UHGV virus genome: UHGV-1358007
Length of the DNA stretch: 20,705 bases
DNA from: a virus
Strand: one strand, 5' to 3'
Part shown: in pieces, positions 1 to 19,581 of the stretch
Position numbering within the stretch: the first letter of the stretch is position 1
Layout: the number at the start of each line of letters is the position of its first letter
Program-made: the position numbers and the translations under genes
Notes under the pieces: model-generated
The model's input: only the letters and a program-made list of their open reading frames with translations
What the model was told of the DNA's origin: nothing
The model's database searches: none

Positions 1-396
1 CCTGGCTAACGGGAAATACACCGCACAGGATGCAACGACAGCACAGAAAGGGATAGTTCAGCTCAGCAGTGCGACTAACAGCACTTCCGAGTCACAGGCG
101 GCAACGCCAAAAGCCGTTAAGGCCGCGTATGACCTGGCTAACGGGAAATACACCGCACAGGATGCAACGACAGCACAGAAAGGGATAGTTCAGCTCAGCA
201 GTGCGACTAACAGCACTTCCGAGTCACAGGCGGCAACGCCAAAAGCCGTTAAGGCCGCGTATGACCTGGCTAACGGGAAATACACCGCACAGGACGCTAC
301 GACAGCACAAAAAGGAATTGTCCAGCTCAGTAGTGCAACCAACAGCACATCTGAAACGCTTGCTGCGACACCGAAAGCAGTGAAAGCAGCTAATGA
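1..396 (+). repeat. Three in-frame tandem copies of a 132-bp (44-aa) repeat inside the tail fiber gene; copies 1 and 2 near-identical, copy 3 diverged
   Basis: Sequence beginning cctggctaacgggaaatacacc recurs at 1, 133 and 265; encodes [30 protein letters not shown]...[11 protein letters not shown]. Confidence 0.9.
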
Positions 397-1612
397 CAAT
401 GCGAATGGTCGGGTACCTTCTGCCCGTAAGGTGAATGGTAAGGCGCTTTCAGCGGATATAACACTGACGCCGAAAGATATTGGTACGCTTAACTCAACAA
501 CAATGTCATTCAGCGGTGGTGCTGGTTGGTTCAAATTAGCAACGGTAACCATGCCACAGGCGAGTTCTGTTGTTTCAATTACGTTGATTGGTGGCGCTGG
601 ATTTAACGTGGGGTCACCTCAACAGGCAGGTATATCTGAACTTGTTTTACGTGCAGGTAATGGTAATCCGAAGGGGATTACTGGTGCTTTATGGCAGCGC
701 ACATCGACAGGGTTTACAAATTTTGCCTGGGTCAATACATCTGGTGATACTTACGATATTTACGTTGCAATCGGAAATTATGCGACTGGTGTAAATATTC
801 AATGGGATTATACCAGTAATGCCAGCGTGACGATTCATACGTCACCAGCATATTCTGCTAATAAGCCGGAAGGGTTAACGGACGGTACAGTTTATTCACT
901 CTATACGCCATCAGAGCAGTTTTATCCGCCTGGCGCACCAATCCCGTGGCCATCAGATACCGTTCCGTCTGGCTATGCCCTGATGCAGGGGCAGACTTTT
1001 GACAAATCTGCATACCCGAAACTTGCAGCGGCTTATCCGTCAGGCGTGATCCCTGATATGCGTGGCTGGACGATTAAGGGCAAACCTGCCAGTGGTCGGG
1101 CCGTATTGTCTCAGGAACAGGACGGCATTAAATCGCATACCCACAGCGCCAGCGCATCCAGTACAGATTTGGGGACGAAAACCACATCGTCGTTTGATTA
1201 CGGCACTAAATCCACGAATAACACTGGTGCGCATACCCATAGTTTAAGTGGCAGCACGAATGCAGCTGGTAATCACAGCCATAGAGATGGCCGTCGATTT
1301 AACCCCAGTGTTTTTAAAGATACTTATCAATATGGTTATACAAGCTCAGGTCAAAATACCTGGGGTGTACAAGGCTCAGTAGGTATGTCTACGGGGTGGT
1401 TAGCGAATACCAGTACAGATGGTAATCATAGCCATTCACTGTCCGGCACAGCAGCATCTGCAGGTGCACACGCGCATACTGTCGGTATTGGTGCTCATAC
1501 GCACTCCGTTGCGATTGGTTCACATGGACACACCATCACCGTTAACGCTGCTGGTAACGCGGAAAACACCGTCAAAAACATCGCATTTAACTATATTGTG
1601 AGGCTTGCATAA
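1..1612 (+). CDS. stf: Side tail fiber protein, 5'-truncated by the window edge (reading frame open from position 2)
   Basis: Frame continuous from window start into ORF 380..1612; tail-fiber-type repeats; His-rich C-terminal HxH repeats ([18 protein letters not shown]); followed by tfa with overlapping TAATG. Confidence 0.85.
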
Positions 1613-2196
1613 TGGCATTCAGAATGAGTGAACAACCACGGACCATAAAAATTTATAATCTGCTGGCCGGAACTAATGAATTTATTGGTGAAGGTGACGC
1701 ATATATTCCGCCTCATACAGGTCTGCCAGCAAACAGTACCGATATTGCACCACCAGATATTCCTGCTGGCTTTGTGGCTGTTTTCAACAGTGATAAGGCA
1801 TCGTGGCATCTCGTTGAAGACCATCGGGGTAAAACGGTTTATGACGTGGCTTCCGGCGACGCGTTATTTATTTCTGAACTCGGTCCGTTACCGGAAAATG
1901 TTACCTGGTTATCGCCGGGAGGGGAATATCAGAAGTGGAACGGCACAGCCTGGGTGAAGGATACGGAAGCAGAAAAACTGTTCCGGATCCGGGAGGCGGA
2001 AGAAACAAAAAACAGCCTGATGCAGGTAGCCAGTGAGCATATAGCGCCGCTTCAGGATGCTGTAGATCTGGAGATCGCAACGGAGGAAGAAAACTCGTTG
2101 CTGGAAGCCTGGAAAAAGTATCGGGTGTTGCTGAACCGTGTTGATACATCAACTGCACCGGATATTGAGTGGCCTGCTGTCCCTGTTATGGAGTAA
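1612..2196 (+). CDS. tfa: Tail fiber assembly protein (lambda Tfa-like, 194 aa)
   Basis: Translation [34 protein letters not shown]... matches lambda Tfa as I remember it; start overlaps stf stop. Confidence 0.9.
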
Positions 2197-2675
2197 TCGT
2201 TTTGTGATATGCCGCAGACACGTCGTATGCAGAAACGTGCTGCGGCTGGCTGGTGAACTTTCAATAGTGCGAGTATTGAATGATTTCCAGCTGTTATCGA
2301 TTTTATGTGTTTTTTGCATGAGGGGATTTCCACCACCTCCCACCGACCATCTAAGACTTTATGCCACTGTCCCTAGGACTGCTATGTACTAGGAGCGGAT
2401 GTTAAACTCAGACTCGTTTCAGCTACATTGCGTTTTGAATAATATTCCATCATAATAACTCTTTGAAAAATGTGATCTTTTCATTTATAACACTGATGAC
2501 TTGCTTATCTCATTGGGATATCGGAGGAGAATACTTAACTATGACAAGCCCGATTATTATGACACTGGCTATATTATATAGATTGATATTAAAATGTAGG
2601 ATTAGGTTCTTGCCAAGGTGTCAAGATTTACAGATAGGTTTAAAACCATATAAATATGTTTTACGGTGAGATACA

Positions 2676-2702
2676 ATACATATTGTAAGGCATAAACGCT
2701 TG
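2676..2702 (+). promoter_or_regulatory. Candidate sigma70 promoter for the cargo gene (-35 ttgtaa, extended -10 tggtaaaat)
   Basis: Motifs about 30 nt upstream of the 2734 start; spacing is short (15 nt); AT-rich context makes chance matches likely. Confidence 0.2.
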
Positions 2703-2733
2703 GTAAAATTTTAATTATTGGAAGAAGCTAATC

Positions 2734-5700
2734 ATGGAACCCATATCAATTACAGTGGCAACTTATGTAGCAACTAAACTTATTGATCAATTCATCTCTC
2801 AAGAAGGATATGGTTGTATTAAGAAAGCATTATTCCCCCAAAAAAGATATGTGGATAGATTATATCAACTAATTGAAGAGACGGCAATTGAGTTTGAAGA
2901 AACATATCCAGTAGAAAGTGGAGCAATACCATTTTATCATTCCGAACCATTGTTTGAGATGTTGAATGAGCACATCTTTTTTAAAGAGTTCCCTGACAAA
3001 GAGATATTATTAGACAAGTTCAAAGAATATCCAAGTATCACTCCCCCAACTCAACAACAACTCAGCCTTTTTTATGAGATGTTATCATTAAAAATCAATA
3101 ATTGTTCGAAGTTAAAAAAGCTACATATCGAAGAAACGTATAAAGAAAAAATATTCGATATTAATGAAGAGCTCATTCAAGTCAAACTTATTTTACGGTC
3201 TATAGATGAGAAACTAACTTTTCACTTAAGTGATGATTGGTTAAATGAAAAAAATAGTCAAGCAATAGCTGACTTGGGAGGTCGATACACACCCGAACTC
3301 AACGTAAAGCTAGAAATAGCAGAGATATTTGATGGCCTCGGTAGAACTAATGATTTTTCTAAAATATTTTATTCGCATATAGATAGCTTTCTGGTCGCTG
3401 GAAAGAAATTACATAGTTGCGATGTAATTTCCTCAGAATTATTTGAAATAAACCAGTCCTTAAAAGAAATTTCTGATATATATCAGGAGATTAATTTTTC
3501 TAAATTAGATGAAATCCCTATAAATAAATTTAATAACTATGTTTCTAGCTGCCAGACAGCTATTGGCGGAGCGGTATCAATATTGTGGGAACTCCGAGAA
3601 AAGTCAGAGCAAGTAGGTGAAACCAAGCATTACAGTGATAAGTATTCATCTACTCTGCGAATGCTTCGGGAATTTGACTATGCGTGCAATGAATTACGTA
3701 TATTCATTAATTCAACAACAGTGAAGTTGGCTAACAACCCATTCTTACTTCTCGAAGGAAAAGCAGGAATTGGTAAGTCTCATTTACTGGCTGATGTGAT
3801 TAAAAATCGAATTGCTTCTGGGTATCCTTCACTACTCATACTAGGGCAACAACTTACTTCAGATGAATCTCCATGGTCACAAATCTTCAAGAGATTACAG
3901 CTTAAAATCACTTCTCGTGAATTCCTAGAAAAACTGAATTTATATGGCAAAAAAACAGGAAAAAGAGTCTTAGTTTTTATTGATGCTATTAATGAAGGTA
4001 ATGGAAATAAATTCTGGAATGACAATATTAACAGTTTTGTCGATGAAATCAGATGCTTTGAATGGCTTGGTCTGATAATGTCAGTCAGAACAACATATAG
4101 AAATGTAACAATTTCACATGAGAATGTTGTGCGAAATAATTTTGAAATTCATGAACATATTGGATTCCAGAACGTTGAGTTGGAAGCGGTTAGTCTATTT
4201 TATGATTATTACAATATTGAGAGGCCTTCATCTCCTAACCTTAATCCAGAGTTTAAAAATCCTCTATTTCTTAAGTTATTGTGTGAAGGCATTAAGAAAA
4301 ATGGTTTAACCAAAGTGCCTGTTGGATTTAATGGGATTTCAAATATTTTTAACTTTTTAGTTGAAGGGGTAAATAAATCATTAGCATCGCCAAAAAAATA
4401 TGCATTCGATCCCAGTTTTCCTCTTGTTAAAGATGCTCTCAATGAAATCATAAAATTCAAATTAGAGATTGGTCGTAATAGTATTTCACTTAAAGATGCT
4501 CACTCAGTGGTTCAATCTGTAGTTAATGATTATGTTGCTGATAAAACCTTCCTCAGCGCCTTGATTGACGAAGGATTATTGACTAAAGGCATAGTGAGAA
4601 ATGATGATAATTCTACTGAGGAAGTAGTTTATGTGGCTTTTGAAAGGTTTGATGATCATTTAACTGTTAATTTTTTATTAAATGATGTTGAAAATATCGA
4701 AAGTGAATTTAAGCCTGATGGTCGTCTGAAAAAATATTTTCATGATGAATGTGATTTTTATATAAAATCGGGAATAGTAGAGGCGTTGTCTATTCAATTG
4801 CCAGAAAGGTATGAAAAAGAGCTTTATGAATTTCTGCCGGAGTTCAGCAATAATCTTAAATTACTAGAAGCCTTTATTGATAGCTTGATATGGCGCGATA
4901 TTAAGGCTATTGATTTCGAAAAAATTAGACCTTTCATCAATGAACATGTTTTTAAATTTAAAGATAGTTTTGATCATTTCCTCGAGGCAGTGATCTCTAT
5001 TTCAGGTTTAGTTGGCCATCCCTTTAATGCTAATTTCTTGCATGATTGGCTAAAAGATTATTCTTTGGCAAATCGAGATTCGTTTTGGACTACAGAACTT
5101 AAATATAAATATAGTGAAGACTCAGCATTTAGGCATCTAATCGATTGGGCATGGGCCAGAACAGATAAAAGCTTTGTTTCGGATGAGTCAATCGAGCTAG
5201 TTGCAACTAGTTTATGCTGGTTTTTAACTTCTAGTAACCGAGAACTTCGAGATTGCTCAACTAAGGCTTTAGTGAGTTTACTCGAGCCAAGAATTCCTGT
5301 ATTGAGAAAAATAATTGATAAGTTTTATGGTGTAAATGATCCTTACGTTTGGGAAAGAATATTTGCAGTTGCATTAGGCTGTACATTGCGAACTGATAAT
5401 ATTAAAGAACTAAAATATTTAGCCGAAACTGTTTACCAAAAGGTATTTTGTTCTAAGTATGTGTATCCAAATATATTACTTAGAGATTATGCTAGAGAGA
5501 TTATTGAATTTGCTAATCATCTTGGATTGGAACTTGAAAGCATTGAATTATCCAAGACTAGACCACCCTACAACAGCATTTGGCCTGACAAGATTCCTTC
5601 AAAAGAGGAACTAGAGTCCCTTTATGATAAAGAACCTTATCGGGAACTCTGGAGCTCTATTATGGAAGATGGTGACTTTTCACGATATACTATTGGAACA

Positions 5701-7188
5701 AATTATAATCATTCTGATTGGTCTGGTTGCAAGTTTAATGAAACCCCTGTTGACCGTAAGCAAGTTTTTAAAACTTTCAAATGTAAACTAACTGATCAAC
5801 AAAAAGACTTGTATGATGCCACAGATCCTTTCATTTATGATGATAAATGCGAAGGAATTAAATTTGGTCGTGTGGTCGGTAGAAAAGCACAGGAAGAAAT
5901 AAAGGCGAGCAAGAAATTATTTAAGAATTCATTGTCATACGATCTGTTAAGTGAGTTTGAAAATGAAATAGAGCCATACCTGGATCATAATAATAATCTG
6001 CTGGAAACTGATAAACACTTTGATCTTCGACTAGCTCAACAATTTATATTCAATCGTGTTATAGAGCTTGGTTGGGATCCGGAGAAGCATGGTAATTTTG
6101 ACCAACAAATAGGAACTGGACGTGGACGTAGAGAGGCATTCCAAGAACGGATTGGTAAAAAATACCAATGGATTGCTTATTATGAATACATGGCAAGGCT
6201 AGCCGATAATTTTACTCGTTTTGAAGGTTATGGTGACGAACGAAAGGAAAATCCATACCAAGGGCCATGGGAGCCTTACGTAAGAGATATAGATCCCACT
6301 ATCTTACTTAAAGAAACTGGAACGAAAAAAATAAGCAATAAAGAAATGTGGTGGCTTAATGATGAAGTGTTTGATTGGACTTGCTCTAATGAAGACTGGG
6401 TTAAAAGTTCTACTACTATAACTAATTCATATGCTTTTATTGAAGTTAAAGATGATAATGGTGATGAATGGATAGTATTAGAAAGTCATCCATCATGGAA
6501 AGAACCAAAAATTATTGGAAACGATGATTGGGGGCACCCACGAAAAGAGGTTTGGTATCAGATCAGAAGTTATATCGTTAAAGTTGAAGAATTTGAAAAT
6601 TTTAGATGTTGGGCAATAGCTCAAGACTTTATGGGCAGGTGGATGCCGGAATGTACTGATAGATACCAATTATTTAATAGGGAGTACTATTGGTCCGAAG
6701 CATTTAAGTCTTTTAAATCAGATTATTATGGTGGATCTGACTGGACTTCGGTAACAGACCGGGAGTCTGGAGCTAAGATAGCTGATGTTAGTGTCACTTC
6801 GATTAATTATTTGTGGGAAGAGGAGTTCGACAAATCAAAAATAGAAACTTTGAATTTTTTGAAGCCTAGTAACTTAATCTTTGAAAAGATGGGATTAAAA
6901 AGTGGGGAAGTAGAGGGTAGCTTCAATGATGAAAATGGAACTATGGTTTGCTTTGCAGCTGAAGCTGTATATGCTTCAAAGCCGCATCTACTTGTTAAAA
7001 AAGAACCATTTTTAACAATGTTAAGGGACAATGGTTTTGAAATCGTTTGGACATTATTAGGTGAAAAGGGCGTTATAGGGGGCTCACTCATATCAAGTCA
7101 TCATTATGGTCGACAGGAGTTTAGTGGAGCATTTTATTATGAAGACAGTCAGCTAACAGGAAGTCATAAAACTAGCTTTACGAGATAA
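2734..7188 (+). CDS. Large NACHT/STAND-like P-loop NTPase (1484 aa); candidate single-gene anti-phage defense protein with unassigned N- and C-terminal domains
   Basis: Uninterrupted 4455-nt ORF with RBS ggaagaag upstream of ATG; Walker A GKAGIGKS (nt 3757-3780); Walker B-like VLVFIDAINE; MSVRTT and HIGFQNVELEAVSLFYDYY resembling NACHT sensor and GF motifs; AT-rich versus flanks. Confidence 0.8.
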   Translation: MEPISITVATYVATKLIDQFISQEGYGCIKKALFPQKRYVDRLYQLIEETAIEFEETYPVESGAIPFYHSEPLFEMLNEHIFFKEFPDKEILLDKFKEYPSITPPTQQQLSLFYEMLSLKINNCSKLKKLHIEETYKEKIFDINEELIQVKLILRSIDEKLTFHLSDDWLNEKNSQAIADLGGRYTPELNVKLEIAEIFDGLGRTNDFSKIFYSHIDSFLVAGKKLHSCDVISSELFEINQSLKEISDIYQEINFSKLDEIPINKFNNYVSSCQTAIGGAVSILWELREKSEQVGETKHYSDKYSSTLRMLREFDYACNELRIFINSTTVKLANNPFLLLEGKAGIGKSHLLADVIKNRIASGYPSLLILGQQLTSDESPWSQIFKRLQLKITSREFLEKLNLYGKKTGKRVLVFIDAINEGNGNKFWNDNINSFVDEIRCFEWLGLIMSVRTTYRNVTISHENVVRNNFEIHEHIGFQNVELEAVSLFYDYYNIERPSSPNLNPEFKNPLFLKLLCEGIKKNGLTKVPVGFNGISNIFNFLVEGVNKSLASPKKYAFDPSFPLVKDALNEIIKFKLEIGRNSISLKDAHSVVQSVVNDYVADKTFLSALIDEGLLTKGIVRNDDNSTEEVVYVAFERFDDHLTVNFLLNDVENIESEFKPDGRLKKYFHDECDFYIKSGIVEALSIQLPERYEKELYEFLPEFSNNLKLLEAFIDSLIWRDIKAIDFEKIRPFINEHVFKFKDSFDHFLEAVISISGLVGHPFNANFLHDWLKDYSLANRDSFWTTELKYKYSEDSAFRHLIDWAWARTDKSFVSDESIELVATSLCWFLTSSNRELRDCSTKALVSLLEPRIPVLRKIIDKFYGVNDPYVWERIFAVALGCTLRTDNIKELKYLAETVYQKVFCSKYVYPNILLRDYAREIIEFANHLGLELESIELSKTRPPYNSIWPDKIPSKEELESLYDKEPYRELWSSIMEDGDFSRYTIGTNYNHSDWSGCKFNETPVDRKQVFKTFKCKLTDQQKDLYDATDPFIYDDKCEGIKFGRVVGRKAQEEIKASKKLFKNSLSYDLLSEFENEIEPYLDHNNNLLETDKHFDLRLAQQFIFNRVIELGWDPEKHGNFDQQIGTGRGRREAFQERIGKKYQWIAYYEYMARLADNFTRFEGYGDERKENPYQGPWEPYVRDIDPTILLKETGTKKISNKEMWWLNDEVFDWTCSNEDWVKSSTTITNSYAFIEVKDDNGDEWIVLESHPSWKEPKIIGNDDWGHPRKEVWYQIRSYIVKVEEFENFRCWAIAQDFMGRWMPECTDRYQLFNREYYWSEAFKSFKSDYYGGSDWTSVTDRESGAKIADVSVTSINYLWEEEFDKSKIETLNFLKPSNLIFEKMGLKSGEVEGSFNDENGTMVCFAAEAVYASKPHLLVKKEPFLTMLRDNGFEIVWTLLGEKGVIGGSLISSHHYGRQEFSGAFYYEDSQLTGSHKTSFTR

Positions 7189-7467
7189 AAATGAATCTCA
7201 GAGCTGAATATATAAGTAGTATTAGAAACCGGGTTATACTTAAGAAATCAATCTTAAGTGTGGCAGTCGAATGGTAGCTAATATGCTAGCGGCGCTAATG
7301 CCTGTTTGTTGCTCATAACAGGCATTCACTTTAGTTATGGCAGAAAAGTATACATGCTGGGTTGGGAAAGTGTGAAAGAAAGGAAGATTGCTGCGCCGTT
7401 TGTCGTCACGTTTATCTTCATTGGCTATGCAAGTCGTAATAAAAGGTGGGACAAAACTGAGACACAT

Positions 7468-7500
7468 AAAGCCTCGCAATGGCTTGCAAGGCTTTACATG
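7468..7500 (-). promoter_or_regulatory. Candidate sib/tI-like hairpin distal to int across the att core
   Basis: Near-perfect 10-bp stem agcctcgcaa/ttgcaaggct with loop tggc, about 80 bp from the att core on the b-region side, analogous in position to lambda sib. Confidence 0.2.
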
Positions 7501-7571
7501 TTTTGATGTGGTGGGACGTGTGAGCGCAGTGTTGATGGGGTAATGCTTTGAATTAGAAGCGGATTCTTATA

Positions 7572-7617
7572 ATTCGTAATGCGAAGGTCGTAGGTTCGAC
7601 TCCTATTATCGGCACCA
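7572..7617 (+). other. Phage attachment core (attP): 46 bp matching the 3' end of tRNA-Thr (thrW, anticodon CGU) through CCA; not a complete tRNA
   Basis: attcgtaatgcgaaggtcgtaggttcgactcctattatcggcacca matches the thrW 3' segment as I remember it; upstream sequence does not continue the tRNA; integrase gene adjacent. Confidence 0.65.
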
Positions 7618-7631
7618 TTTAAATCAATAAG

Positions 7632-8795
7632 TTACACATCATTAGTACCTTCCTTATTTTTTGACTGGGACAAATTTGGGACCGATGGGTTCAGGATCGA
7701 GTCTATTTGCCGTGCGTGTTCGGTAAGGTGATTAGGTGCAAGGTGAGCATATCGACGAACCATTTCGATAGACTCCCAGCCTCCCATTTCCTGTAACACT
7801 GACAACGGGACTCCGGCTTGAACCAGCCAACTTGCCCAGGTGTGTCTCAAGTCGTGAAATCTGAAATCATCAATACCAGCCCGTCTCAGCGCCGCTTTCC
7901 AGGCTGTGTTTGCGTCATACCGCATCTTCCTTACTGTTGGCGCTTTCGTTCCGTCTGGTTTGGTACAGCTTTCCTTGTACACAAATACCCAACGGTGATG
8001 ATTCCCGATTTGTTTTTTCAATACGCGACATGCAGTATCATTCAGCGCAACGCCAATTGCGCGGTTTGATTTACTCTCTTCCGGGTTTATCCATGCCACC
8101 CGGCGCTGCATATCTATTTGTTGCCATTCAAGGTTGATGATGTTCGAGCGTCTTAAGCCTGTTGCCAGTGCAAATTCAACAACAGACTTTAATGGCTCCG
8201 GACATTCATCAATCAGCCTTTGTGCTTCATGGGGCTCCAGCCAGCGGATCCGTTTATTCTTTGGTTGAGGCACTTTAATAATTGGTGCCTTATCCAGCAT
8301 TTTCCATTCACGCTCTGCGGCTCTTAGTAGGGCCTTTATAAATGAAAGATGCGTAGCCTTCGTTGCAACGGACGCTGGTTTTGGCGTGTATTCTGGAACA
8401 GGTTTCCCTTTTTTTCTGCATGCTTCTGCCCTGAGTTTCCAGTTTTCCTCATGACGCCGGTTCGTCATTTTCTGCATTGCTGAATAAATTTTTGATTCAG
8501 TAATGTCTCTTAGTTGCATTCCTGCGAAATGTTGAAGCCAGAATCCGATCCGGCTTTTGTCATCGTCCAGTGATTTTTTATGTGCTTTCTCTTCAAGCCA
8601 CCTGACACACGCTTCCTCGAACGTTATATCAGGTATTTCACCAAGTTTGCTGACCCGCCATGCTTCAGCCTTTAGCTTGTCATGGAGTTCTGTCGCCTGC
8701 CTTTTGTCCTTTGTTCCAAGAGACTGTTTAAATCTTTTACCGTTCGGCAATGTGAAACTGGCGTACCATATTTCACCTCTGCGGAAGAGTGACAT
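7632..8795 (-). CDS. int: Tyrosine integrase (P22 Int-like, 387 aa)
   Basis: [33 protein letters not shown]... with C-terminal [15 protein letters not shown]...VRRYAHL catalytic region; RBS aggaaag upstream; next to att core. Confidence 0.95.
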
Positions 8796-9022
8796 TTTCT
8801 TTCCTCTGTTATGCCATCACCCGCGCTCACCTGGACAGTATGCAGCGGAGACTGAAGAGCCGCAATGCAGGCTTGTCGTGTTGTGAGGTAAGGAGATTTA
8901 TTCTTAGTGGGATCTTTGCGTGTTGCCTGAAGACGCCCTGTGCGTATCCAGTTAATGGCAGTCGGTCTGGATATCTTGAGAAAATGACAGGCCTCATCGA
9001 GTGTGAGGCTGTATGGCTCCAT
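8672..9022 (-). CDS. xis: Excisionase (P22 Xis-like, 116 aa), start taken at internal ATG with RBS
   Basis: [36 protein letters not shown]...; agaggtga RBS before ATG at 9022; overlaps int 3' end as in lambdoid int-xis pairs. Confidence 0.8.
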
Positions 9023-9327
9023 TATTTCACCTCTTGTTGTGACATTGTTGAAAAATGGATACCTGCTCGTTGCTGCCAGACGATCCAACCGAGAGTCATA
9101 TCCCATGCCATGTATTCGTTATCGCCGTTTTTTGCTCTCCGACGATCTACTAAGTCACCGAAACGCTTTTCCATGAATAATTCATAAGCTTCGCGTTCAT
9201 CTGGTTCTACTTCCAGAGATAGGAGTGCGATTTCATAAGCACGGCGCTCAATATCGTCTCGCACGTCAAGGCTGCTGATACGCTCTTTAATTTCTTTAAT
9301 CAGTTCTTTGTCGGTAAAAGTGGTCAT
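9022..9327 (-). CDS. Hypothetical early-left protein (101 aa, acidic)
   Basis: ORF translationally coupled to xis and the upstream gene; similar in size and order to yfdT-like genes of enterobacterial prophages (from memory). Confidence 0.6.
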   Translation of the reverse strand: MTTFTDKELIKEIKERISSLDVRDDIERRAYEIALLSLEVEPDEREAYELFMEKRFGDLVDRRRAKNGDNEYMAWDMTLGWIVWQQRAGIHFSTMSQQEVK

Positions 9328-9689
9328 TATGCTCCAGCCTCCGGTGCTTTTGGCATTACTGCCCAGTGAGTGATATTGACGTTTTCAAGGTCCCCGACCT
9401 GAAATGTCCACTGCCATTCTCCGGTTTCTTTTTGTCCCCAGGTGTACCAGAGAGAACGCCAGCCAATTAGCCAGCCTTCTCCGTTAGCATCGAATAACAA
9501 AACACTTTCATTTGCTGGTGGCAGTTCAGTTGACACTGGTATTACTTTGTTTTCCTGTGCTGCACATTTAGCTTCAAGCGCATCGAATTTACGCACCAGG
9601 TATTCAGCATCTGTTTCATTCACTTTCAGATCTCGCGGTACACATCTCCCACGAAGAAACCCTTCCATTTCGAAAACATTCATGCGCAT
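9327..9689 (-). CDS. Hypothetical early-left protein (120 aa)
   Basis: ORF in operon context; ATGA overlap with downstream gene. Confidence 0.6.
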   Translation of the reverse strand: MRMNVFEMEGFLRGRCVPRDLKVNETDAEYLVRKFDALEAKCAAQENKVIPVSTELPPANESVLLFDANGEGWLIGWRSLWYTWGQKETGEWQWTFQVGDLENVNITHWAVMPKAPEAGA

Positions 9690-10216
9690 TTGCGTAACTC
9701 CGATAACTCGTTAAAACGTTCCATAAACATCCCGTAGGCATGGCCCGGTGCCTGTGGAATCACTTTGAACATCTCTGTTGCCGGGATACCTTCCAGTACA
9801 GGCCAGAAAGAGCCATCATCAAGCCCGAGATCGCGGCGTTCGGTTGCCAGCATAATGAGATCGGCATATTTCACTGGCGTGCTCATAACAGGAGGTAACC
9901 CGTATTTCTCACGGATTACGGCGTCTATTTTTTCTTCCATCCGTTTATAGTCAGGAAGAAGTCGTTTCAGTGGTGCGGGGATGTCCTGGCAATATGCTTC
10001 TGTTGCATCATGCATTAAAGCTTCAAAAGCAAATTCCTGTGGCACCAGCTGGCTGCAAAGCACCGCATGTTGGGCGACACTGTAGAAGTGTGAAAGATGT
10101 CCTGCAAAGCGACAGATATTTGAAAGGGAAACCGCGATATCGTTAATAACGATGTCGTCTTTATTTATCCTGTCATAATAAAAATGCTTCCCGGAAAAAG
10201 TTTTAATAAATGACAT
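9680..10216 (-). CDS. HD-domain phosphohydrolase (YfdR-like 5'-deoxynucleotidase family), 178 aa from internal ATG
   Basis: H...HD motif (SVAQHAVLC ... LMHDATEAY); ggagaa RBS 7 nt before ATG at 10216; the ORF track's longer start at 10243 lacks an RBS. Confidence 0.75.
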   Translation of the reverse strand: MSFIKTFSGKHFYYDRINKDDIVINDIAVSLSNICRFAGHLSHFYSVAQHAVLCSQLVPQEFAFEALMHDATEAYCQDIPAPLKRLLPDYKRMEEKIDAVIREKYGLPPVMSTPVKYADLIMLATERRDLGLDDGSFWPVLEGIPATEMFKVIPQAPGHAYGMFMERFNELSELRKCA

Positions 10217-10299
10217 TTTGTTCTCCACGTATATGCGCTGCACCGCGCTGAATTCGGGTAAAAGGAAGCCCTCACCGTCCGGCGATTATTGAGTCAATT

Positions 10300-10690
10300 A
10301 CATTTCCATAAATGCCCCCGCAGGGGCGGTTAGTTTCTCCACAAAACAGAGAAGAACACCTGCGGTAGCAGCCGCCCGGATGGATTGGGTTATAAGCCCG
10401 TCGTCCGGTGATGCTCTTCTCTGTTTTGTAAAAAGGGCGATACCAGCCGGAAGCAAGGGTACAAACTGGTACCGCCAAGACTACACACAGCATAAAGTTG
10501 TGGTGCCGGGTGCCTCCCGGTGCCTGGCGAAGGTTGCACACCAGGCGGGTGGGTATCCACAGAAGGTCGACTGTCAGCCTCAACCTTAACCCGCGTGCGC
10601 TGAGCCGCATTCACCACAACGCTAAGGATTCTCTCTGGTTGAAAATACTTAGCTGTTATGTGCCTGCTTTTAGCCACATCAGGCGAGGTG
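10300..10690. other. GC-rich, hairpin-rich, apparently non-coding block (candidate structured RNA or gene remnant)
   Basis: 15-bp perfect inverted repeat acaaaacagagaaga/tcttctctgttttgt (about 10342-10430) around a GC-rich 59-nt loop; further short stems (ccggg/cccgg, cctgg/ccagg); only overlapping ORFs on both strands without RBS. Confidence 0.3.
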
Positions 10691-10696
10691 GACCTA

Positions 10697-10745
10697 GTTA
10701 TTCCCCAACAACAAGGATTCGGTTAATCTGGTTATCCCCAACAAC
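10697..10745 (+). repeat. Two direct repeats GTTAT(T)CCCCAACAAC about 33 bp apart, just upstream of the 10761 gene
   Basis: Seen directly; the repeat contains TTATCCCCA, one mismatch from a DnaA-box consensus TTATCCACA. Confidence 0.55.
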
Positions 10746-10760
10746 GCAAAAGGAAAAGAA

Positions 10761-11195
10761 ATGTCCGGTAATATCTATACGCTGTACAAATCCCACTGTG
10801 AAAATGTTGGAAAGTATCGGGGCATTGAAATCAGTGGGGTAGTGTCATCAGTCGAAATAAGCAAAGTTGAATCAAGGGCAACATTACTTACTCTTTTGGA
10901 CCTTGTCTTACATGAGCACCGGAAGAAATTCGGCACTCCCTATAATCAGTTGAATGGGAAAAAGGCTCTGGTTCACCTTATTCTGATGAAGCATCACTGG
11001 ATGCCAAAACAGATTAATGAGATGAAATTTGATGAACTTCTTCTTTCAATTCAGGATGAACTCACACTTGATAAAATAAGCGTAACCGCCCAGAAATTTT
11101 TAGATTATCGAGACTGGAGATCACAAATTCATCACTTTGATGATTTTGACGAAAATGAATGGGATCCTAATTTGTCTGCACAATATCTAAAGTAA
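10761..11195 (+). CDS. Hypothetical AT-rich protein (144 aa), convergent with the early-left operon; possible moron
   Basis: ORF with aaaggaaaag purine-rich stretch before ATG; followed on the same strand by an intrinsic terminator; no family recognised. Confidence 0.55.
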   Translation: MSGNIYTLYKSHCENVGKYRGIEISGVVSSVEISKVESRATLLTLLDLVLHEHRKKFGTPYNQLNGKKALVHLILMKHHWMPKQINEMKFDELLLSIQDELTLDKISVTAQKFLDYRDWRSQIHHFDDFDENEWDPNLSAQYLK

Positions 11196-11373
11196 CATCC
11201 TGTGATAAAACCGTGATTTCCTGATCCAGTTTTTTTAAGGAGTCTATTGTTTCCTGTCGATAAGACAGCACTTCACGAAGCTGGTTTATAGCTGCCAGCT
11301 TCTTTGTCATCCACTCATAAATTTCCTCATCTGTGTAGCCAGGCGCGACGATTTTGGGTTCTGTTTTGTGCAT
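11167..11373 (-). CDS. Small early-left protein (68 aa from internal ATG; first gene left of the immunity region)
   Basis: gaggag RBS 7 nt upstream of ATG (MHKTEPK...); the ORF track's TTG start 5 codons upstream is less likely. Confidence 0.5.
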   Translation of the reverse strand: MHKTEPKIVAPGYTDEEIYEWMTKKLAAINQLREVLSYRQETIDSLKKLDQEITVLSQDVTLDIVQTN

Positions 11374-11432
11374 TTCACATCTCCTCAAGTTATCAGTTAC
11401 TTGTTGATGGGGACCAGATTGTTAAAGAGCTA

Positions 11433-11456
11433 AGCGTCCTGTAGGGCGCTTTTTTG
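11433..11456 (+). terminator. Rho-independent terminator (stem agcgtcc/gggcgct, loop tgta, then tttttt)
   Basis: Hairpin plus T-tract seen directly; oriented to stop rightward transcription from the 10761 gene before the immunity region. Confidence 0.5.
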
Positions 11457-11620
11457 TTGCTAACGAATCATCCTGGACTTCATATGCCCCAGGCGGCTAC
11501 TTCGTGGGCGTCCTGCCTGTTCGTTATCTTTGATATAAAATCTAACTTAACTTAGTTATTATGGCAAGAGAAAACACCAAACTTTTCTTAGTTCGGTGCC
11601 TTAGTTAGAGAAGAGAGGTC

Positions 11621-12022
11621 TTAGAGTTCGTATTGAACTCCTTTGACTACACCAATGATAAGGCAATTACCATTGATAGGGATGTTGGGATACCGAGGAT
11701 TTAATGGCACTAAAAACTTTTGAGGGCCATCGATGACTAATTTTTTTACTGTAGCTTCGTTTGTTCCATCAAGTCGAGCGATGACTATTTTTCCATGACG
11801 AGGTTCTGCATCTGGATCTACAATCACTGTTGCGCCTTCTGGTATTGTTGGGAGGCCATTAGGGTTAGTCATGGAGTCACCTTTAACCTCTAATGCAAAT
11901 GAGTTATCACCAATCTTTAATGATGTATCTACCCACTTGTCCACTTCACTAAACACTTCTGCTGCCCTGCACTCAGTAAACTGCCCAGCCTGAACCCACG
12001 ATATTACAGGAACTCTGCGCAT
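11621..12022 (-). CDS. cI-type repressor C-terminal S24 peptidase domain only (133 aa); N-terminal HTH domain absent
   Basis: VQAGQF (Ala-Gly cleavage site), GDSM (catalytic Ser) and VKKL (Lys) conserved; aligns to lambda cI residues about 100-236; only 28 in-frame codons upstream before a stop, none a start codon; no SD. Confidence 0.75.
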   Translation of the reverse strand: MRRVPVISWVQAGQFTECRAAEVFSEVDKWVDTSLKIGDNSFALEVKGDSMTNPNGLPTIPEGATVIVDPDAEPRHGKIVIARLDGTNEATVKKLVIDGPQKFLVPLNPRYPNIPINGNCLIIGVVKGVQYEL

Positions 12023-12072
12023 GTTTGTGACGAGTTTGCCTTCAAACTCAGCACCATAAAGAATGTAATCTA

Positions 12073-12101
12073 TTGACGTATTGAAGAACTTCGCTAATAA
12101 T
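12073..12101 (+). promoter_or_regulatory. Candidate pR promoter (-35 ttgacg, 17-bp spacer, -10 aataat) for cro
   Basis: Motifs read directly about 25 nt upstream of cro RBS ggaggg. Confidence 0.4.
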
Positions 12102-12122
12102 AAAACTTAGTTTGGAGGGCGT

Positions 12123-12323
12123 ATGACAACTGACGATATCGAAAGCTACTTCGGCAGTATTGAGAAAGTTGCTGCTTTTTTCGGCATAACAACTGAAGCC
12201 GTTTATCAGTGGCGAAACCGTCCGGGCCAGTTAATTCCAAAAGGACGTGCAGCAGAAGCTGCATATAGAACTTGCGGACGGTTGCCATTTAAACCTGAGC
12301 TTTATGAAAAATCTAATGGATAA
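12123..12323 (+). CDS. cro: Cro-like HTH regulator (66 aa)
   Basis: Small HTH protein (IEKVAAFFGITTEAVYQWRNRPGQLIP) divergent from the repressor gene; RBS ggaggg. Confidence 0.75.
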   Translation: MTTDDIESYFGSIEKVAAFFGITTEAVYQWRNRPGQLIPKGRAAEAAYRTCGRLPFKPELYEKSNG

Positions 12324-12912
12324 ATCGATTAACAGAAACCACAGAACGATGAGGCTAACCGTGGGTAAGCATCACTGGAAAGTAGAAAAACAGCCTGAGT
12401 GGTACGTGAAAGCTGTCAGAAAAACTATCGCAGCGTTGCCGGGTGGTTACGCTGAAGCAGCTGACTGGCTGGATGTAACAGAAAACGCATTATTTAACCG
12501 CCTTCGTGCCGATGGCGATCAGATTTTCCCGCTGGGATGGGCAATGATTTTGCAACGTGCTGGTGGAACTCACTTCATTGCTGACGCTGTGGCGCAGTCT
12601 GCAAATGGCGTCTTTGTGTCTCTTCCTGACGTCGAGGATGTGGACAACGCCGATATTAACCAGCGCCTGCTGGAAGTCATTGAACAGATTGGCAGTTATT
12701 CCAGACAGATTCGTTCGGCAATCGAAGACGGTGTGGTGGAACCGCATGAGAAGACAGCAATTAACGACGAGCTGTATCTCTCAATTTCGAAGCTGCAGGA
12801 GCATGCAGCACTGGTCTACAAAATCTTTTGCATTTCAGAAAGTAATGACGCCCGCGAGTGTGCAGCTCCGGGCGCCGTGGCGTGTCGTGACTGTGGAGAA
12901 ACTAACGCATGA
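12304..12912 (+). CDS. Hypothetical regulatory protein in the cII position (about 202 aa); start uncertain (12247, 12304 or 12316)
   Basis: ORF directly after cro on the early-right strand; no strong SD at any candidate start. Confidence 0.55.
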
Positions 12913-13247
12913 ACAGTTTAACAACACACTACCGTCGCTCGCAACTGATTGCGCTTCCTGTACCGGGTGGAAAAGCGAAGGTGGAGTATTGCTATGCAGT
13001 TAATGTACCAGGTGACAGGGAAATTGTAACCCACAGCTTTGCTGAGTGGGCTGTGGGTGATTTCAACCGGCAGAAGGAGACAGTCCTTTGCGACAAGTTA
13101 ACCGCTGGTTCAAAGATCACTACGGAGTGCCCGTCAGAGTCATTCGTTGGGAGCCGGAAACACAACGGGTTATCTACCTCCGTGAAGGCTATGAGCATGA
13201 GTGCTTCAGCCCGCTCGAACAGTTTCGTCGTAAATTCAGGAAAATAG
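12909..13247 (+). CDS. Hypothetical protein (112 aa)
   Basis: ATGA overlap with upstream gene, same strand as the operon; no recognisable motifs. Confidence 0.4.
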
Positions 13248-13256
13248 AGGTCGGTC

Positions 13257-14198
13257 ATGAGCACTAAATTAACCGGCTATGTATGGGATGGTTGTGCTGC
13301 GTCAGGCATGAAATTATCCAGCGTGGCAATTATGGCCCGCCTGGCTGATTTCAGTAATGACGAAGGTGTGTGCTGGCCATCAATTGAAACTATTGCCCGT
13401 CAGATTGGTGCGGGGATGAGTACCGTCAGAACGGCTATCGCACGGCTGGAAGCAGAAGGCTGGTTAACGCGTAAGGCGCGTCGCCAGGGTAACCGCAATG
13501 CGTCGAATGTTTATCAGCTTAACGTTGCGAAGCTTCAGGCAGCGGCATTTTCTCAACTGTCAGATTCTGACCCGTCAAAATCTGACGCATCAAAATCTGA
13601 CACGTCAAAATTTGATGCGTCGAAATCTGGCAAAAAAGCGGGTTTTCACCCGTCAGAATCTGGCGGGGATCCGTCAGTAAAATCAAAACATGATCCGTCA
13701 GATAAAAAACCTTCTCGTCCGGACGCTTCGCAACCGGACACGCAGACGGCTGAACAGGATTTTTTAACTCGCCATCCTGATGCGGTTGTATTCAGCCCTA
13801 AAAAGCGCCAGTGGGGAACGCAGGATGATTTGACCTGCGCACAGTGGCTCTGGAAAAAAATCATTGCCCTGTACGAGCAGGCCGCCGAATGTGACGGCGA
13901 GGTGGTTCGTCCCAAAGAACCGAACTGGACAGCCTGGGCAAACGAAATTCGCCTGATGTGTGTGCAGGATGGTCGTACTCACAAACAAATCTGCGAGATG
14001 TACAGCCGCGTCAGCCGCGATCCGTTCTGGTGCCGTAACGTGCTCAGCCCGTCGAAGTTGCGGGAAAAATGGGATGAGCTTTCCCTGCGCTTATCGCCGT
14101 CCGTCAGCACGCACACAGAAAAACGTGAAGACCCGTACTTCAAAGCCAGTTACGACAACGTGGACTACAGCCAGATCCCGGCAGGATTCAGGGGGTGA
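13257..14198 (+). CDS. Replication initiation protein (O-like; N-terminal winged-helix, internal iteron-encoding linker)
   Basis: RBS agagg; N-terminal ...SIETIARQIGAGMSTVRTAIARLEAEGWL... HTH; Ser/Asp/Lys-rich linker encoded by direct DNA repeats; replication-gene position. Confidence 0.75.
   Translation: MSTKLTGYVWDGCAASGMKLSSVAIMARLADFSNDEGVCWPSIETIARQIGAGMSTVRTAIARLEAEGWLTRKARRQGNRNASNVYQLNVAKLQAAAFSQLSDSDPSKSDASKSDTSKFDASKSGKKAGFHPSESGGDPSVKSKHDPSDKKPSRPDASQPDTQTAEQDFLTRHPDAVVFSPKKRQWGTQDDLTCAQWLWKKIIALYEQAAECDGEVVRPKEPNWTAWANEIRLMCVQDGRTHKQICEMYSRVSRDPFWCRNVLSPSKLREKWDELSLRLSPSVSTHTEKREDPYFKASYDNVDYSQIPAGFRG
13561..13700. repeat. Iteron-like direct repeats (candidate replication origin) inside the initiator gene
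   Basis: Repeated 15-16 bp units cgtcaaaatctgac(g/a), ccgtcagaatctgg, tccgtcagtaaaatc, tccgtcagataaaaaac; units partly palindromic (cgtca...tgacg). Confidence 0.5.
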
Positions 14199-14689
14199 TC
14201 ATGAGTCTTTTGAATGACGTTCAGAAATTCATTGAAGCCCATCCGGGCTGTACTTCCGGAGACATTGCGGATGCTTTTGCAGGTTACTCACGGCAGCGCG
14301 TTCTGCAGTCTGTAAGCAAGTTACGTCAGAGTGGGCGTGTGGCTCACCGTTGTGAAGGAGATACACGCAGACATTTCCCGCGCCTGACTGAGAGAGCGCA
14401 GGAGCCGGAACCACAACCAGTTCGTGAAACCAGACCTGTGCGCAATTTCTATGTCGGCACTAACGAGCCCCGGGTGATTTTGTGCCTGACCCGCCAGGCT
14501 GAAGAACTGGAGTCAAGGGGCTTATACCGTCGTGCTGCAACCGTGTGGATGGCGGCATTCCGTGAAAGCCACTCCCAGCCAGAACGAAACAATTTTCTGG
14601 CGCGTCGTGAGCAGTGCTTACAGAAAAGCAGCAAGCGCGCTGCATCGGGTGAAGAGTGGTATCTGTCAGGGAATTACGTGGGGGCGTAA
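14195..14689 (+). CDS. Hypothetical regulator with PerC-like C-terminal motif (164 aa)
   Basis: GTG start overlapping upstream stop; motif AEELESRGLYRRAATVWMAAF resembles the PerC/Pch activator family (from memory). Confidence 0.55.
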   Translation: MIMSLLNDVQKFIEAHPGCTSGDIADAFAGYSRQRVLQSVSKLRQSGRVAHRCEGDTRRHFPRLTERAQEPEPQPVRETRPVRNFYVGTNEPRVILCLTRQAEELESRGLYRRAATVWMAAFRESHSQPERNNFLARREQCLQKSSKRAASGEEWYLSGNYVGA

Positions 14690-15015
14690 TGACGACGTTA
14701 ACTCAATGCCAGCAGCAGGTGCTGGATATGCTGATTTCTTATCAGAAAGAGCGTGGCTTTCCGCCAACCAATCAGGAGGTGGCAACCATGCTGGGATACC
14801 GTTCAGTGAATGCAGCTGTGGAGCACCTCCGCGCACTGGAGAAAAAAGGCGTCATCACGATAAAGCGTGGCGTGGCCCGGGGTATCACTCTTCATACCGC
14901 GGTGAAGGACGACGACAGCGAGGCGGTCGGGATTATCCGCTCACTGCTTGCCGGTGAGGAAAACGCCAGGCTGCGTGCAGCCCACTGGTTACATGAGAGG
15001 GGCCTGAAAGTATGA
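14689..15015 (+). CDS. LexA N-terminal DNA-binding-domain-like protein without S24 peptidase domain (108 aa)
   Basis: LTQCQQQVLDMLISYQKERGFPPTNQEVATMLGYRSVNAAVEHLRALEKKGVITIKRGVARGITL aligns position-by-position with E. coli LexA residues about 4-70; TAATG coupled start. Confidence 0.75.
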   Translation: MTTLTQCQQQVLDMLISYQKERGFPPTNQEVATMLGYRSVNAAVEHLRALEKKGVITIKRGVARGITLHTAVKDDDSEAVGIIRSLLAGEENARLRAAHWLHERGLKV

Positions 15016-15401
15016 AATTGATCCTGCCTTTTCCGCCCAGCGTGAACACGTACTGGCGACACCCCAATAAAGGGGCGCTTGCAGGTAAGAGCCTGATAAG
15101 CGCGGCGGGGCGAAAATTCCAGAGCGCAGCGTGTGCAGCCATCATTGAGCAGTTACGTCGTTTGCCGAAACCAACGTCGGCACCAGCTTCAGTGGAGATC
15201 GTGTTGTTTCCTCCGGATAACCGGATCCGCGATCTGGACAACTATAACAAGGCGCTGTTTGACGCCCTGACCCACGCGGGTGTGTGGGAAGACGACAGCC
15301 AGGTGAAAAGAATGCTGGTGGAGTGGGGACCGGTTATCCAGAAAGGGAAGGTCGAGATCACTATCAGTAAGTATGAGAAACCGGCGGGTGCAGCCGCCTG
15401 A
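15012..15401 (+). CDS. rusA: RusA-family Holliday junction resolvase (129 aa)
   Basis: LPFPPSVNTYWRH ... RIRDLDNYNKALFDALTHAGVWEDDSQV, matching RusA hallmark motifs; ATGA overlap with upstream gene. Confidence 0.9.
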   Translation: MKLILPFPPSVNTYWRHPNKGALAGKSLISAAGRKFQSAACAAIIEQLRRLPKPTSAPASVEIVLFPPDNRIRDLDNYNKALFDALTHAGVWEDDSQVKRMLVEWGPVIQKGKVEITISKYEKPAGAAA

Positions 15402-15420
15402 TTAAGAGGAGAAACGAAGT

Positions 15421-16220
15421 ATGAATAATCTGATGGTCATTGATGGTATTGAAGTTCGTCGTGATGCTTATGGGCGTTACAGCCTGAACGATCTGCACAG
15501 GGCAGCCGGGGGAGAACAACGAAATACTGGCTCTCCAATAAGCAAACCTGTGAATTGATTGAACAACTTTTCACCGAGGGTGGAATTCCGCCTCTGGAAC
15601 AAAATCAACCAGTTAGCGTCATTAATGGCGGAAATAACCAGGGGACGTATGTCTGCAAAGAACTGGTGTATGCCTATGCAATGTGGATCAGCCCGTCATT
15701 CCATCTGAAGGTGATCCGTACTTTCGATATGGTAACCAGCGTACCGGAAAAATTATCCGGGCAGGCTGCTGACAAGATGCAGGCTGGCGTGATTCTGCTG
15801 GACTTTATGCGCCGGGAGTTAAACCTGTCTAACTCATCTGTGCTTGGGGCCTGTCAGAAACTCCAGGAGGCTGTTGGCTTACCGAATCTGGCACCACGCT
15901 ATGCCATTGATGCTCCTGCTGACGCGCCTGATGGCTCAAGTCGCCCTACGCTGTCGCTGAGTGCACTGCTGAAACAGTATGGTATCCGCCTGACAGCTAA
16001 TCAGGTATATCACCAGATGGCGAAGCTGGGGATCGTCGAGCAGCGCGAACGATACAGCCGTACCGCGATTAACAACATCAAAAAATTCTGGTCGCTGACA
16101 GCGAAAGGCTGCATGTTCGGCAAGAACATCACCAGTCCCGCAAATCCGCGCGAGACGCAGCCGCATTTCTTCGAATCCCGATTCCCTGAGCTGTTAAAGC
16201 TGCTCGATACCGTACATTGA
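15421..16220 (+). pseudogene. KilA-N/KilAC antirepressor-like gene interrupted by a frameshift near 15540-15555 (or sequencing error)
   Basis: Short ORF from ATG about 15421 with strong RBS aggag encodes MNNLMVIDGIEVRRDAYGRYSLNDLHRAAGG (KilA-N N-terminus) and stops after about 43-45 codons; the rest of the domain (GTYVCKELVYAYAMWISPSFHLKVI) continues in ORF 15555..16220, which has a TTG start and no RBS. Confidence 0.5.
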
Positions 16221-16221
16221 G

Positions 16222-17217: not shown

Positions 17218-17234
17218 TTTTGTGGAGAAAGTTG

Positions 17235-17597: not shown

Positions 17598-17603
17598 ATA
17601 CAA

Positions 17604-17631
17604 CAACGGCTCTTAGAGAGCCGTTGTTTTT
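17604..17631 (+). terminator. Rho-independent terminator just downstream of Q (stem caacggctc/gagccgttg, loop ttaga, T-tract)
   Basis: 9-bp perfect stem and ttttt tract read directly. Confidence 0.5.
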
Positions 17632-17801
17632 AGAAACTGTTTTTTATGACTGAACCTGTGGTGCAACTTAAAAAGTTACTGTAGCCATTGACGCCATTGT
17701 TGCTTGTTTTTTGAGCAGTGGATGGAATGCTTGCTGGCTTAGGCGCAGCTGTAGTTGTATGCCTGTTAGTATAGACTACAAAGTTACCTGTAGATGATTT
17801 G

Positions 17802-19578: not shown

Positions 19579-19581
19579 TTT

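Follow-up and report, generated by a model that had tools for sequence, protein, structure and literature searches.

The open reading frame (ORF) 2734..7188 of the 20,705-nucleotide window, the whole stretch of viral DNA that was analysed (genome UHGV-1358007), is almost certainly avs2, encoding EcAvs2 (AVAST type 2), a sensor that works as a single protein by abortive infection and travels as cargo of a thrW lambdoid prophage, at its tfa-attP end. This finding is already known, and the gene is the type example of its family. The Avs2 family is said to have been first reported in 2020, and later papers cite Gao et al. (Science, 2020 and 2022) for EcAvs2, or Avast2.

The ORF starts with ATG and encodes 1484 amino acids. 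The protein WP_063118745.1, called EcAvs2 or Avast2 in two publications, showed 0 nucleotide and 0 amino acid differences from it, and the same DNA constitutes the avs2 gene of strains SCEC020001 and NCTC9087. The curated NCBIfam equivalog model for Avs2 (NF041813) matched aa 178-1476 over its entire length (model positions 1-1317 of 1317) with 1689.6 bits, above the trusted cut-off of 1000 bits, and six Avs2 models in PADLOC also matched, the best scoring 1752 bits across aa 22-1483. Chain 9o4e_A of the 2.3 Å EcAvs2 structure (PDB 9O4E; Evans et al. 2026 Nat Commun, PMC13601566) aligned end to end (residues 1-1484, 3445.7 bits). The ten functional residues described in the structure paper were all found at identical numbering, and the ORF has the Avs2 arrangement of an effector, a STAND NTPase with Walker A and B motifs and a long C-terminal sensor. 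Nothing was found that spoke against the EcAvs2 identity or the terminase-sensing mechanism. The avs2 label was assigned by PGAP in 87 of 5426 complete E. coli genomes.

Searching the whole protein against Pfam gave nothing above threshold, merely P-loop and STAND matches, and a PHROGs search returned no match for the ORF. Pfam alone would have suggested novelty, which was overturned by PADLOC and NCBIfam. An earlier note on this DNA had proposed an unrecognised defence candidate; this was rejected, as the sequence is that of the structurally solved EcAvs2 and belongs over its full length to a characterised family. The functional call of that note, a single-gene Avs-type STAND anti-phage protein encoded by a moron that lies between tfa and attP, was correct, and the coordinates and setting given for the 1484-aa ORF agree with ours; its novelty and domain readings were not borne out. 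A STAND defence gene can be recognised correctly from sequence alone.

Table 1. Features of the avs2 locus and its surroundings (window positions).
Feature	Position	Strand	Basis or remark
Tail fibre	380-1612		PHROG match
Tail-fibre assembly protein (tfa)	1612-2196		PHROG match
AT-rich intergenic region (37% GC) upstream of avs2, presumed native promoter	2197..2733	+	GGAAGAAG 6 nt before ATG
avs2 coding sequence (EcAvs2, AVAST type 2 anti-phage STAND NTPase)	2734..7188	+	NF041813, PADLOC, WP_063118745.1, 9o4e_A
N-terminal effector module, aa 1-135	2734..3138	+	alignments, AF2 model, profile search
Linker and helical extension, aa 136-335	3139..3738	+	between effector and NTPase
Walker A GKAGIGKS, aa 342-349	3757..3780	+	K348 codon 3775-3777
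Walker B-like VLVFIDAINE, aa 412-421 (D417, E421)	3967..3996	+	assignment from sequence
Bridging-ATP and terminase-contact residue span (TPR/C-terminal sensor)	5674..7119	+	published residues at same numbering
Candidate terminator between avs2 and att core, perfect 18-bp hairpin then T-run	7462..7501	-	-25.7 kcal/mol
attP core, 64 bp: 3' 46 nt of tRNA-Thr (thrW) + 18 nt	7572..7635	+	end of cargo slot
Integrase	7632-8795	-	PHROG match

The AT-richness of the ORF noted earlier was confirmed (GC 0.343, vs 0.492 for 1-2200 and 0.482 for 7632-20705), GC being 0.31-0.37 throughout 2501-7000 in a 500-nt profile. The same held for the AT-rich upstream region, the sequence of which is unchanged in strain CE0011b, and the claim that the gene has its own ribosome-binding site is plausible given the purine-rich GGAAGAAG. 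A consensus promoter scan of 2100-7700 returned 18 sites vs 20.7 expected, none of them on the plus strand in 2197-2733; since the scan was no better than chance, no promoter position is claimed. Downstream of avs2, the candidate terminator hairpin gave z = -6.5 against shuffled sequences. Its placement relative to int resembles that of lambda sib/tI, and it is possibly bidirectional and would then also serve avs2. A plus-strand hairpin past the stop codon (approximately 7297-7327) was dropped as a terminator (z = -1.25). The left arm of the window corresponds to attR of the EC19 prophage and the right arm to EC19 attL, and ARAGORN found no complete tRNA. PADLOC gave no convincing defence match among the remaining ORFs of the window, the lone match elsewhere being weak and partial (PDC-S22, ORF 15555-16220, 22.7 bits over 35 aa).

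The motif positions quoted previously were exact; MSVRTT lies at aa 449-454 and HIGFQNVELEAVSLFYDYY at aa 475-493. The description of this core as NACHT-like stands at the level of the STAND superfamily but not for Pfam NACHT (PF05729), which scored 13.1 bits (E = 0.085) vs a cut-off of 26.7 bits and covered the P-loop alone (aa 338-357). The Pfam models nSTAND6 (18.4 vs 27.7 bits) and NB-ARC (12.4 vs 23.5) were likewise sub-threshold, and EcAvs2 is placed in STAND because of its solved structure, not Pfam. The 9O4E chain is divided into effector, helical extension, NBD-HD1-WHD, TPR domain and C-terminal sensor (PMC13601566). The first ~340 aa, earlier treated as one unassigned block, are in fact a modular MEPIS effector of ~135 aa followed by a terminase-contacting helical extension. 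This extension, described as terminase-proximal (PMC13601566), includes an invariant DLGxRYTPELN...GLGRT block at aa 180-205, where the NCBIfam Avs2 model begins, and has AF2 pLDDT values of 81-96 across aa 205-335. The C-terminal ~950 aa, said in the earlier note to be without recognisable repeats and rich in Trp and Tyr, form by cryo-EM an elaborate TPR domain and a beta-rich sensor common with Avs3, and the enrichment is modest (W 2.9%, Y 4.9%). Residues D981, T1128, R1130, R1132, W1266, E1362, E1364, E1444 and E1462 are all present in the bridging-ATP and terminase-contact span.

The identical sequence defends against PhiV-1, T7, ZL19 and Pal009 and protects heterologous E. coli K-12 as a single gene (PMC13601566), and defence against T4 was also reported for Avast2 (10.1101/2024.11.07.622273); in the published defence assays avs2 was expressed from its native promoter. 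Among the proteins of PhiV-1 and ZL19, no activator other than the terminase was found, the ATPase domain of the large terminase alone suffices as trigger, and another activator of EcAvs2 is Ksap1, a small phage protein (PMC13601566). Toxicity is terminase-dependent and defence is abolished by K348A, the loss-of-function control that had been proposed from the sequence; a terminase-induced, ATP-bound C4 tetramer was observed by SEC and cryo-EM, and interface and bridging-ATP mutations in combination weakened defence (PMC13601566).

These published experiments on the identical sequence show that the helical extension, together with the TPR domain and the beta-rich sensor, makes up a pocket binding the large-terminase ATPase domain of an invading phage, with a bridging ATP closing the interface. 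Terminase binding leads to an ATP-dependent flat C4 tetramer assembled via the STAND NTPase domains, a step that requires K348, and the tetramer gathers the four N-terminal effectors, resulting in cell death or arrest before release of phage progeny. The clustered, non-enzymatic 135-aa MEPIS effector would probably perturb the inner membrane in a Bell/HeLo manner, a step taking the place of the DNA cutting by the Mrr-type effectors of most Avs2 proteins.

The N-terminus of EcAvs2 reads MEPISITVATYV, and the opening MEPISITV ('MEPIS' motif) is conserved among close homologs. A MEPIS-type motif at residue 1 is a feature of the Bell/HeLo/Hell group, and the motif is listed as common to Hell, Bell, Bab and bNACHT proteins (including 10.1101/2024.11.07.622273). 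When aa 1-335 and aa 1-135 served as queries, word-indexed homolog searches gave mostly short fragments, and other fusion partners were recovered by an exhaustive HMMER search, in which the effector profile matched 315 representative clusters. The module was N-terminal in every one, and was fused to Avs2, NB-ARC/TPR, NACHT-like and TPR-GreAB-C-PIN sensors, confirming its modular nature as an N-terminal domain of numerous kinds of sensor. A MEPIS-type start was present in just 22-29 of 143 module representatives. The N-terminal 19-mer is moderately hydrophobic (mean Kyte-Doolittle 1.09), the invariant columns of the alignment, which include G25, Y26, P66, F67 and S70, are mostly hydrophobic or aromatic, and AF2 modelled the domain as a small all-helical bundle.

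Mutations in the MEPIS region of Avast2 lower anti-T4 defence (10.1101/2024.11.07.622273), and the MDPIT motif of bNACHT11 gives rise to membrane-proximal puncta and plasmolysis. The effector cannot be seen in the cryo-EM map, the authors of the structure assign it no function (PMC13601566), and a Bell/HeLo-like membrane-targeting death domain is the published hypothesis for it. By analogy with these proteins, the effector probably acts on the inner membrane in a Bell/HeLo-like way and is without enzymatic activity; Pfam gave no nuclease or other enzymatic match for aa 1-177. Fold searches with the effector models found no match to pore-forming domains and did not confirm a Bell/HeLo fold, the first ~30 residues, those that matter to this comparison, having AF2 pLDDT values below 50. 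Bab (9H9V) was undetected at E <= 10 when the effector profile was searched against a set of PDB sequences in which the presence of 9H9V is unconfirmed. Given its N-terminal fusions to sensors, the module occupies in cis the place that the Bell-domain killer Bab holds in trans for a TGP sensor.

The N-terminal domain of the same protein could instead be an adaptor: once the tetramer has formed, it would recruit or activate a protein of the host or of the prophage, with no direct membrane action. In the active tetramer the effector shows disorder or flexibility, and the authors suggest that it may need 'membranes or interacting partners' (PMC13601566); it has no hydrophobic segment of transmembrane grade, its models match no pore-forming fold, and the invariant residues G25, Y26, P66, F67 and S70 could make a binding surface. 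An adaptor is nevertheless unlikely: the single gene works in E. coli K-12, so that any partner must be a conserved host protein, the module is found on many unrelated sensors in distant taxa, and the MEPIS/MDPIT motif is common to fungal HELLP, which favours a universal target such as lipid. Much less probable still is that the domain hides an enzyme, for instance a nuclease like the Mrr type, and that EcAvs2 kills through nucleic-acid degradation. The effector domain holds the position occupied by N-terminal nucleases in most Avs2 homologs and in Avs3, Avs4 and Avs7, but aa 1-177 had no nuclease match in Pfam, PADLOC or PDB sequences, the AF2 model is an all-helical small bundle, the invariant columns contain no PD-(D/E)xK-like pattern, and conserved charged or polar residues are absent according to the authors (PMC13601566).

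That the ORF is a decayed, non-functional copy in a defective prophage, with no present role, is scarcely credible, even though most sampled carriers are defective, with deletions of terminase and head genes and a frameshift in J, and the window has a 221-bp deletion in its own immunity region. The ORF is intact and the same as the allele conferring defence in experiments, avs2 is kept even where the prophage is reduced to int' and 'tfa (NCTC9087), and the sampled carriers differ by 0-6 aa alone, a divergence that suggests retention under selection or recent spread. We favour a functional EcAvs2 with an effector that probably acts on the membrane.

The natural home of EcAvs2 is hereby documented as the b-region cargo slot of a lambdoid prophage integrating at tRNA-Thr (thrW), in which the gene is kept during prophage decay. 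The window represents the circular, or attP, permutation of this carrier, whereas in sampled public E. coli chromosomes avs2 lies at the attR end of the integrated prophage. A phage genome collection contained no avs2 at the DNA level, and tblastn gave two partial, distant matches, so the gene is absent from the deposited phage isolates searched. In at least one strain, CE0011b, the carrier prophage seems to be intact and has a large terminase of its own, a 700-aa protein of gpA type. Two questions are raised by the locus, namely the route by which the MEPIS effector kills and the coexistence of a terminase sensor with the terminase of its own carrier. An intact large terminase was missing in four of the five inspected carriers. 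Tentatively, and with some doubt, the carrier terminase may be a natural non-activator (self-tolerance), or the sensor may select for terminase loss and thereby domesticate its carrier. A non-activator terminase, if real, would be a built-in self-tolerance showing evasion of a very broad pattern-recognition pocket. No discussion of self-tolerance or domestication was found in the part of the EcAvs2 literature that was covered.

EcAvs2/Avast2 (WP_063118745.1, 9O4E) is identical to the protein of the window throughout, validated residues included. KpAvs2 of Klebsiella pneumoniae (Bechon et al. 2024, PMC11564622) shares with it the STAND NTPase, the Avs2-type C-terminal sensor and the sensing of the large terminase and Ksap1, and further senses Ksap2 and some nuclease domains (PMC13601566). 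KpAvs2 carries an N-terminal Mrr-family endonuclease and lies in an operon with two accessory genes, whereas EcAvs2 stands alone and bears the MEPIS helical effector. SeAvs3 (8DGC) is also a terminase-sensing STAND tetramer, with a beta-rich C-terminal sensor on the same terminase ATPase surface, but has another TPR domain, an elongated rather than flat tetramer and a nuclease effector, and binds the folded nuclease domain. With Bab/Agp (Bell-domain killer and TPR-GreAB-C-PIN sensor) and fungal HeLo/Hell, EcAvs2 has in common an N-terminal MEPIS-type motif of ~15 aa, while no full-domain likeness in sequence or fold was detected between its effector and Bab/HeLo; some TGP sensors themselves carry the EcAvs2-type module (P0040). 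Because sensor and effector are joined in cis, in one chain, EcAvs2 is without an amyloid (BASS) relay. bNACHT11 is likewise an NLR-like sensor of phage proteins with a short N-terminal MDPIT/MEPIS-like motif, which is required for death, and its activation leads to plasmolysis. It belongs to the true NACHT clade and assembles as heptamers, and its extension is just ~45 aa long, in contrast to the Avs2-clade tetramer and 135-aa domain of EcAvs2.

Pfam returned only sub-threshold P-loop/STAND matches to the avs2 product (nSTAND6, 18.4 bits; NACHT, 13.1 bits; NB-ARC, 12.4 bits), a result that by itself resembles the novel STAND protein proposed in the earlier note. Identity was settled by the defence-specific libraries PADLOC and NCBIfam. 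The PADLOC Avs2 model matched EcAvs2 with 1752 bits over aa 22-1483, and the equivalog NF041813 ('AVAST type 2 anti-phage system protein Avs2'; trusted cut-off 1000) scored 1689.6 bits with the entire model covered. The window ORF showed 0 nt and 0 aa differences from the copies in E. coli SCEC020001 and NCTC9087 (WP_063118745.1), a protein named 'EcAvs2' or 'Avast2' in two papers, and 87 of 5426 complete E. coli genomes carry the same DNA, which PGAP annotates as avs2. PDB chain 9o4e_A matched across residues 1-1484, and all 10 of the 10 residues named in the structure paper (PMC13601566) were present at identical numbering. The identity of the ORF as EcAvs2 is already known and, since full-length membership in a characterised family is what the earlier note itself had named as refutation, the finding is already explained. 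An Avs-type STAND protein acting as single-gene defence from a prophage cargo slot was right in kind; the implied novelty gave way to identity with WP_063118745.1 within the characterised Avs2 family, and the NACHT label was wrong. The terminal regions treated as unknowns have been described: a helical extension forms the terminase pocket together with an elaborate TPR domain and a C-terminal sensor rich in beta structure (PMC13601566).

Features of the window, of EcAvs2 and of the CE0011b carrier (stretches L004 and L006)
Feature	Position	Strand	Remark
Tail-fibre gene	380-1612		upstream of avs2
Tail-fibre assembly gene	1612-2196		upstream of avs2
avs2 ORF	2734..7188	+	1484 codons, ATG start
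att core, 64 bp	7572-7635		first 46 nt = tRNA-Thr 3' end
Tyrosine integrase (int)	7632-8795	-	downstream of avs2
S24-peptidase-only ORF (repressor remnant)	11621-12022	-	
cro	12123-12323		
Second cargo ORF, 331 aa	17802-18797	-	SDH-type ClpP-like serine proteinase, PF01972 54 bits
GKAGIGKS	EcAvs2 aa 342-349		
VLVFIDAINE	EcAvs2 aa 412-421		
MSVRTT	EcAvs2 aa 449-454		
HIGF...DYY	EcAvs2 aa 475-493		
Structure-paper residues in window protein	K348, D981, T1128, R1130, R1132, W1266, E1362, E1364, E1444, E1462		
CE0011b avs2	L004 20535-24989		1 substitution, S175I
CE0011b large terminase	L006 20585-22687		gpA-type, 700 aa, intact

The earlier description of the ORF was borne out in all checkable details, promoter location excepted. 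GC content was 0.343, against 0.492 (window 1-2200) and 0.482 (window 7632-20705), and the four quoted motifs each lay at exactly the residues claimed. The proposal that avs2 is its own expression unit fits published native-promoter defence assays; the promoter itself was not located, a consensus scan giving nothing beyond chance level. The suggested Walker A control, K348A, is a published mutant that lacks defence (PMC13601566). Evans et al. 2026 (PMC13601566) report that EcAvs2 counters T7-like and T1-like phages as well as Dhillonvirus, and that its activators include the Pal009 terminase and Ksap1. According to the same paper, which credits Gao et al. 2020 with the first description of the family and Gao et al. 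2022 with that of terminase sensing, the terminase ATPase domain by itself suffices for activation and terminase binding induces oligomerisation. In the 2.3 Å cryo-EM structure, each protomer of a flat C4 tetramer binds one terminase, the interface being sealed by a third, 'bridging' ATP (PMC13601566).

In strain EC19, each half of the window maps to one end of a single ~29.5-kb prophage, which sits at thrW with proA on one side and the pao operon on the other; avs2 is its final gene before attR. No complete tRNA was found between avs2 and int in the window. Its att junction has attR as left arm and attL as right arm and is therefore an exact attP; the window is thus a circular (excised) or tandem permutation of the prophage element. 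Across the att core from int lies a hairpin of 18 perfectly paired bp with a T-run (7462-7501, minus strand; -25.7 kcal/mol, z = -6.5), placed like lambda sib/tI, the retro-regulator of int. The hairpin may terminate avs2 transcription too. Rfam IS009 (RF02111) matched at 1955-2153 (+) with 222.7 bits (gathering score 117), a stretch within the tail-fibre assembly gene, in its 3' portion.

The window is mosaic relative to EC19, the nearest chromosomal prophage. The tail-fibre gene is divergent over its 5' portion (1-931), being either 75% identical or unmatched, and a 1.3-kb EC19 segment with YfdQ and YfdP family genes is missing at 10316-10327. A 221-bp deletion (junction 12098, region 11621-12323) takes from a CI/LexA-family repressor gene its 5' 149 nt, encoding the HTH domain, along with most of the cI-cro operator region; in this copy a functional repressor and a functional PR are thus probably missing. 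The second cargo ORF, AT-rich (about 40-42% GC) and oppositely oriented between the Q antiterminator and holin genes, gave no match in PADLOC.

The avs2 gene was not found among 50,697 deposited phage genomes. The only sizeable phage-genome match to EcAvs2, in Staphylococcus phage UPMK_1 (MG543995.1, 102838-104856, minus strand), is a 'hypothetical protein' with 31% identity to aa 635-1428, the sensor region; the alignment suggests an Avs2-like sensor or decoy in this 153-kb staphylococcal phage record.

Carrier prophages are often decayed. The EC19 prophage has neither large terminase nor head genes, the terminase genes of SCEC020001 and NRZ99027-2 are truncated pseudogenes, and the NCTC9087 remnant consists of int', 'tfa and avs2 only. 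Unlike these four inspected carriers, in which the large terminase is deleted or truncated, CE0011b carries an apparently intact prophage of ~44 kb. A terminase sensor and an intact terminase in one prophage raise the question of self-tolerance, which was not addressed in the published work found; terminase loss in the other carriers raises that of possible sensor-driven prophage domestication.

In the majority of Avs2 proteins the effector is an Mrr-type nuclease; EcAvs2 has a 'less common' domain, absent from the cryo-EM map, to which the authors assign no function (PMC13601566). Homolog alignment placed the effector boundary at ~aa 135-178, after which the Avs2 core opens with an invariant DLGxRYTPELN...GLGRT block. 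Modelled with AF2, aa 1-335 and aa 1-135 both came out all-helical; confidence was moderate over aa 35-135 and low over aa 1-34. The N-terminus reads MEPIS, a ~15-aa motif common to fungal Hell domains, bacterial Bell domains, the Bab killer protein and several antiphage NLRs, and mutation of this region in Avast2 weakens T4 defence (Ibarlosa et al., 10.1101/2024.11.07.622273). In bNACHT11, a related MDPIT motif is required for salt-dependent, plasmolysis-like death. As the last step, the clustered helical effector would perturb the inner membrane; this is the best-supported reading, its main rival being that the effector is an adaptor, and it counts as unproven, given an N-terminal helix of only moderate hydrophobicity and MEPIS-type starts in only 22-29 of 143 module representatives.

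The effector profile, run in an exhaustive HMMER search, recovered 315 representative clusters, the match falling invariably at the extreme N-terminus. Avs2 made up only 3 of the 86 long representatives bearing the module; the remainder include TPR-GreAB-C-PIN (TGP) proteins, NB-ARC+TPR STANDs, a NACHT-like protein and several unnamed scaffolds. This survey arrives independently at the published description of a 'modular effector'. A further argument comes from the TGP sensor class, which triggers the Bell-domain killer Bab in trans and bears the EcAvs2-type module in cis.
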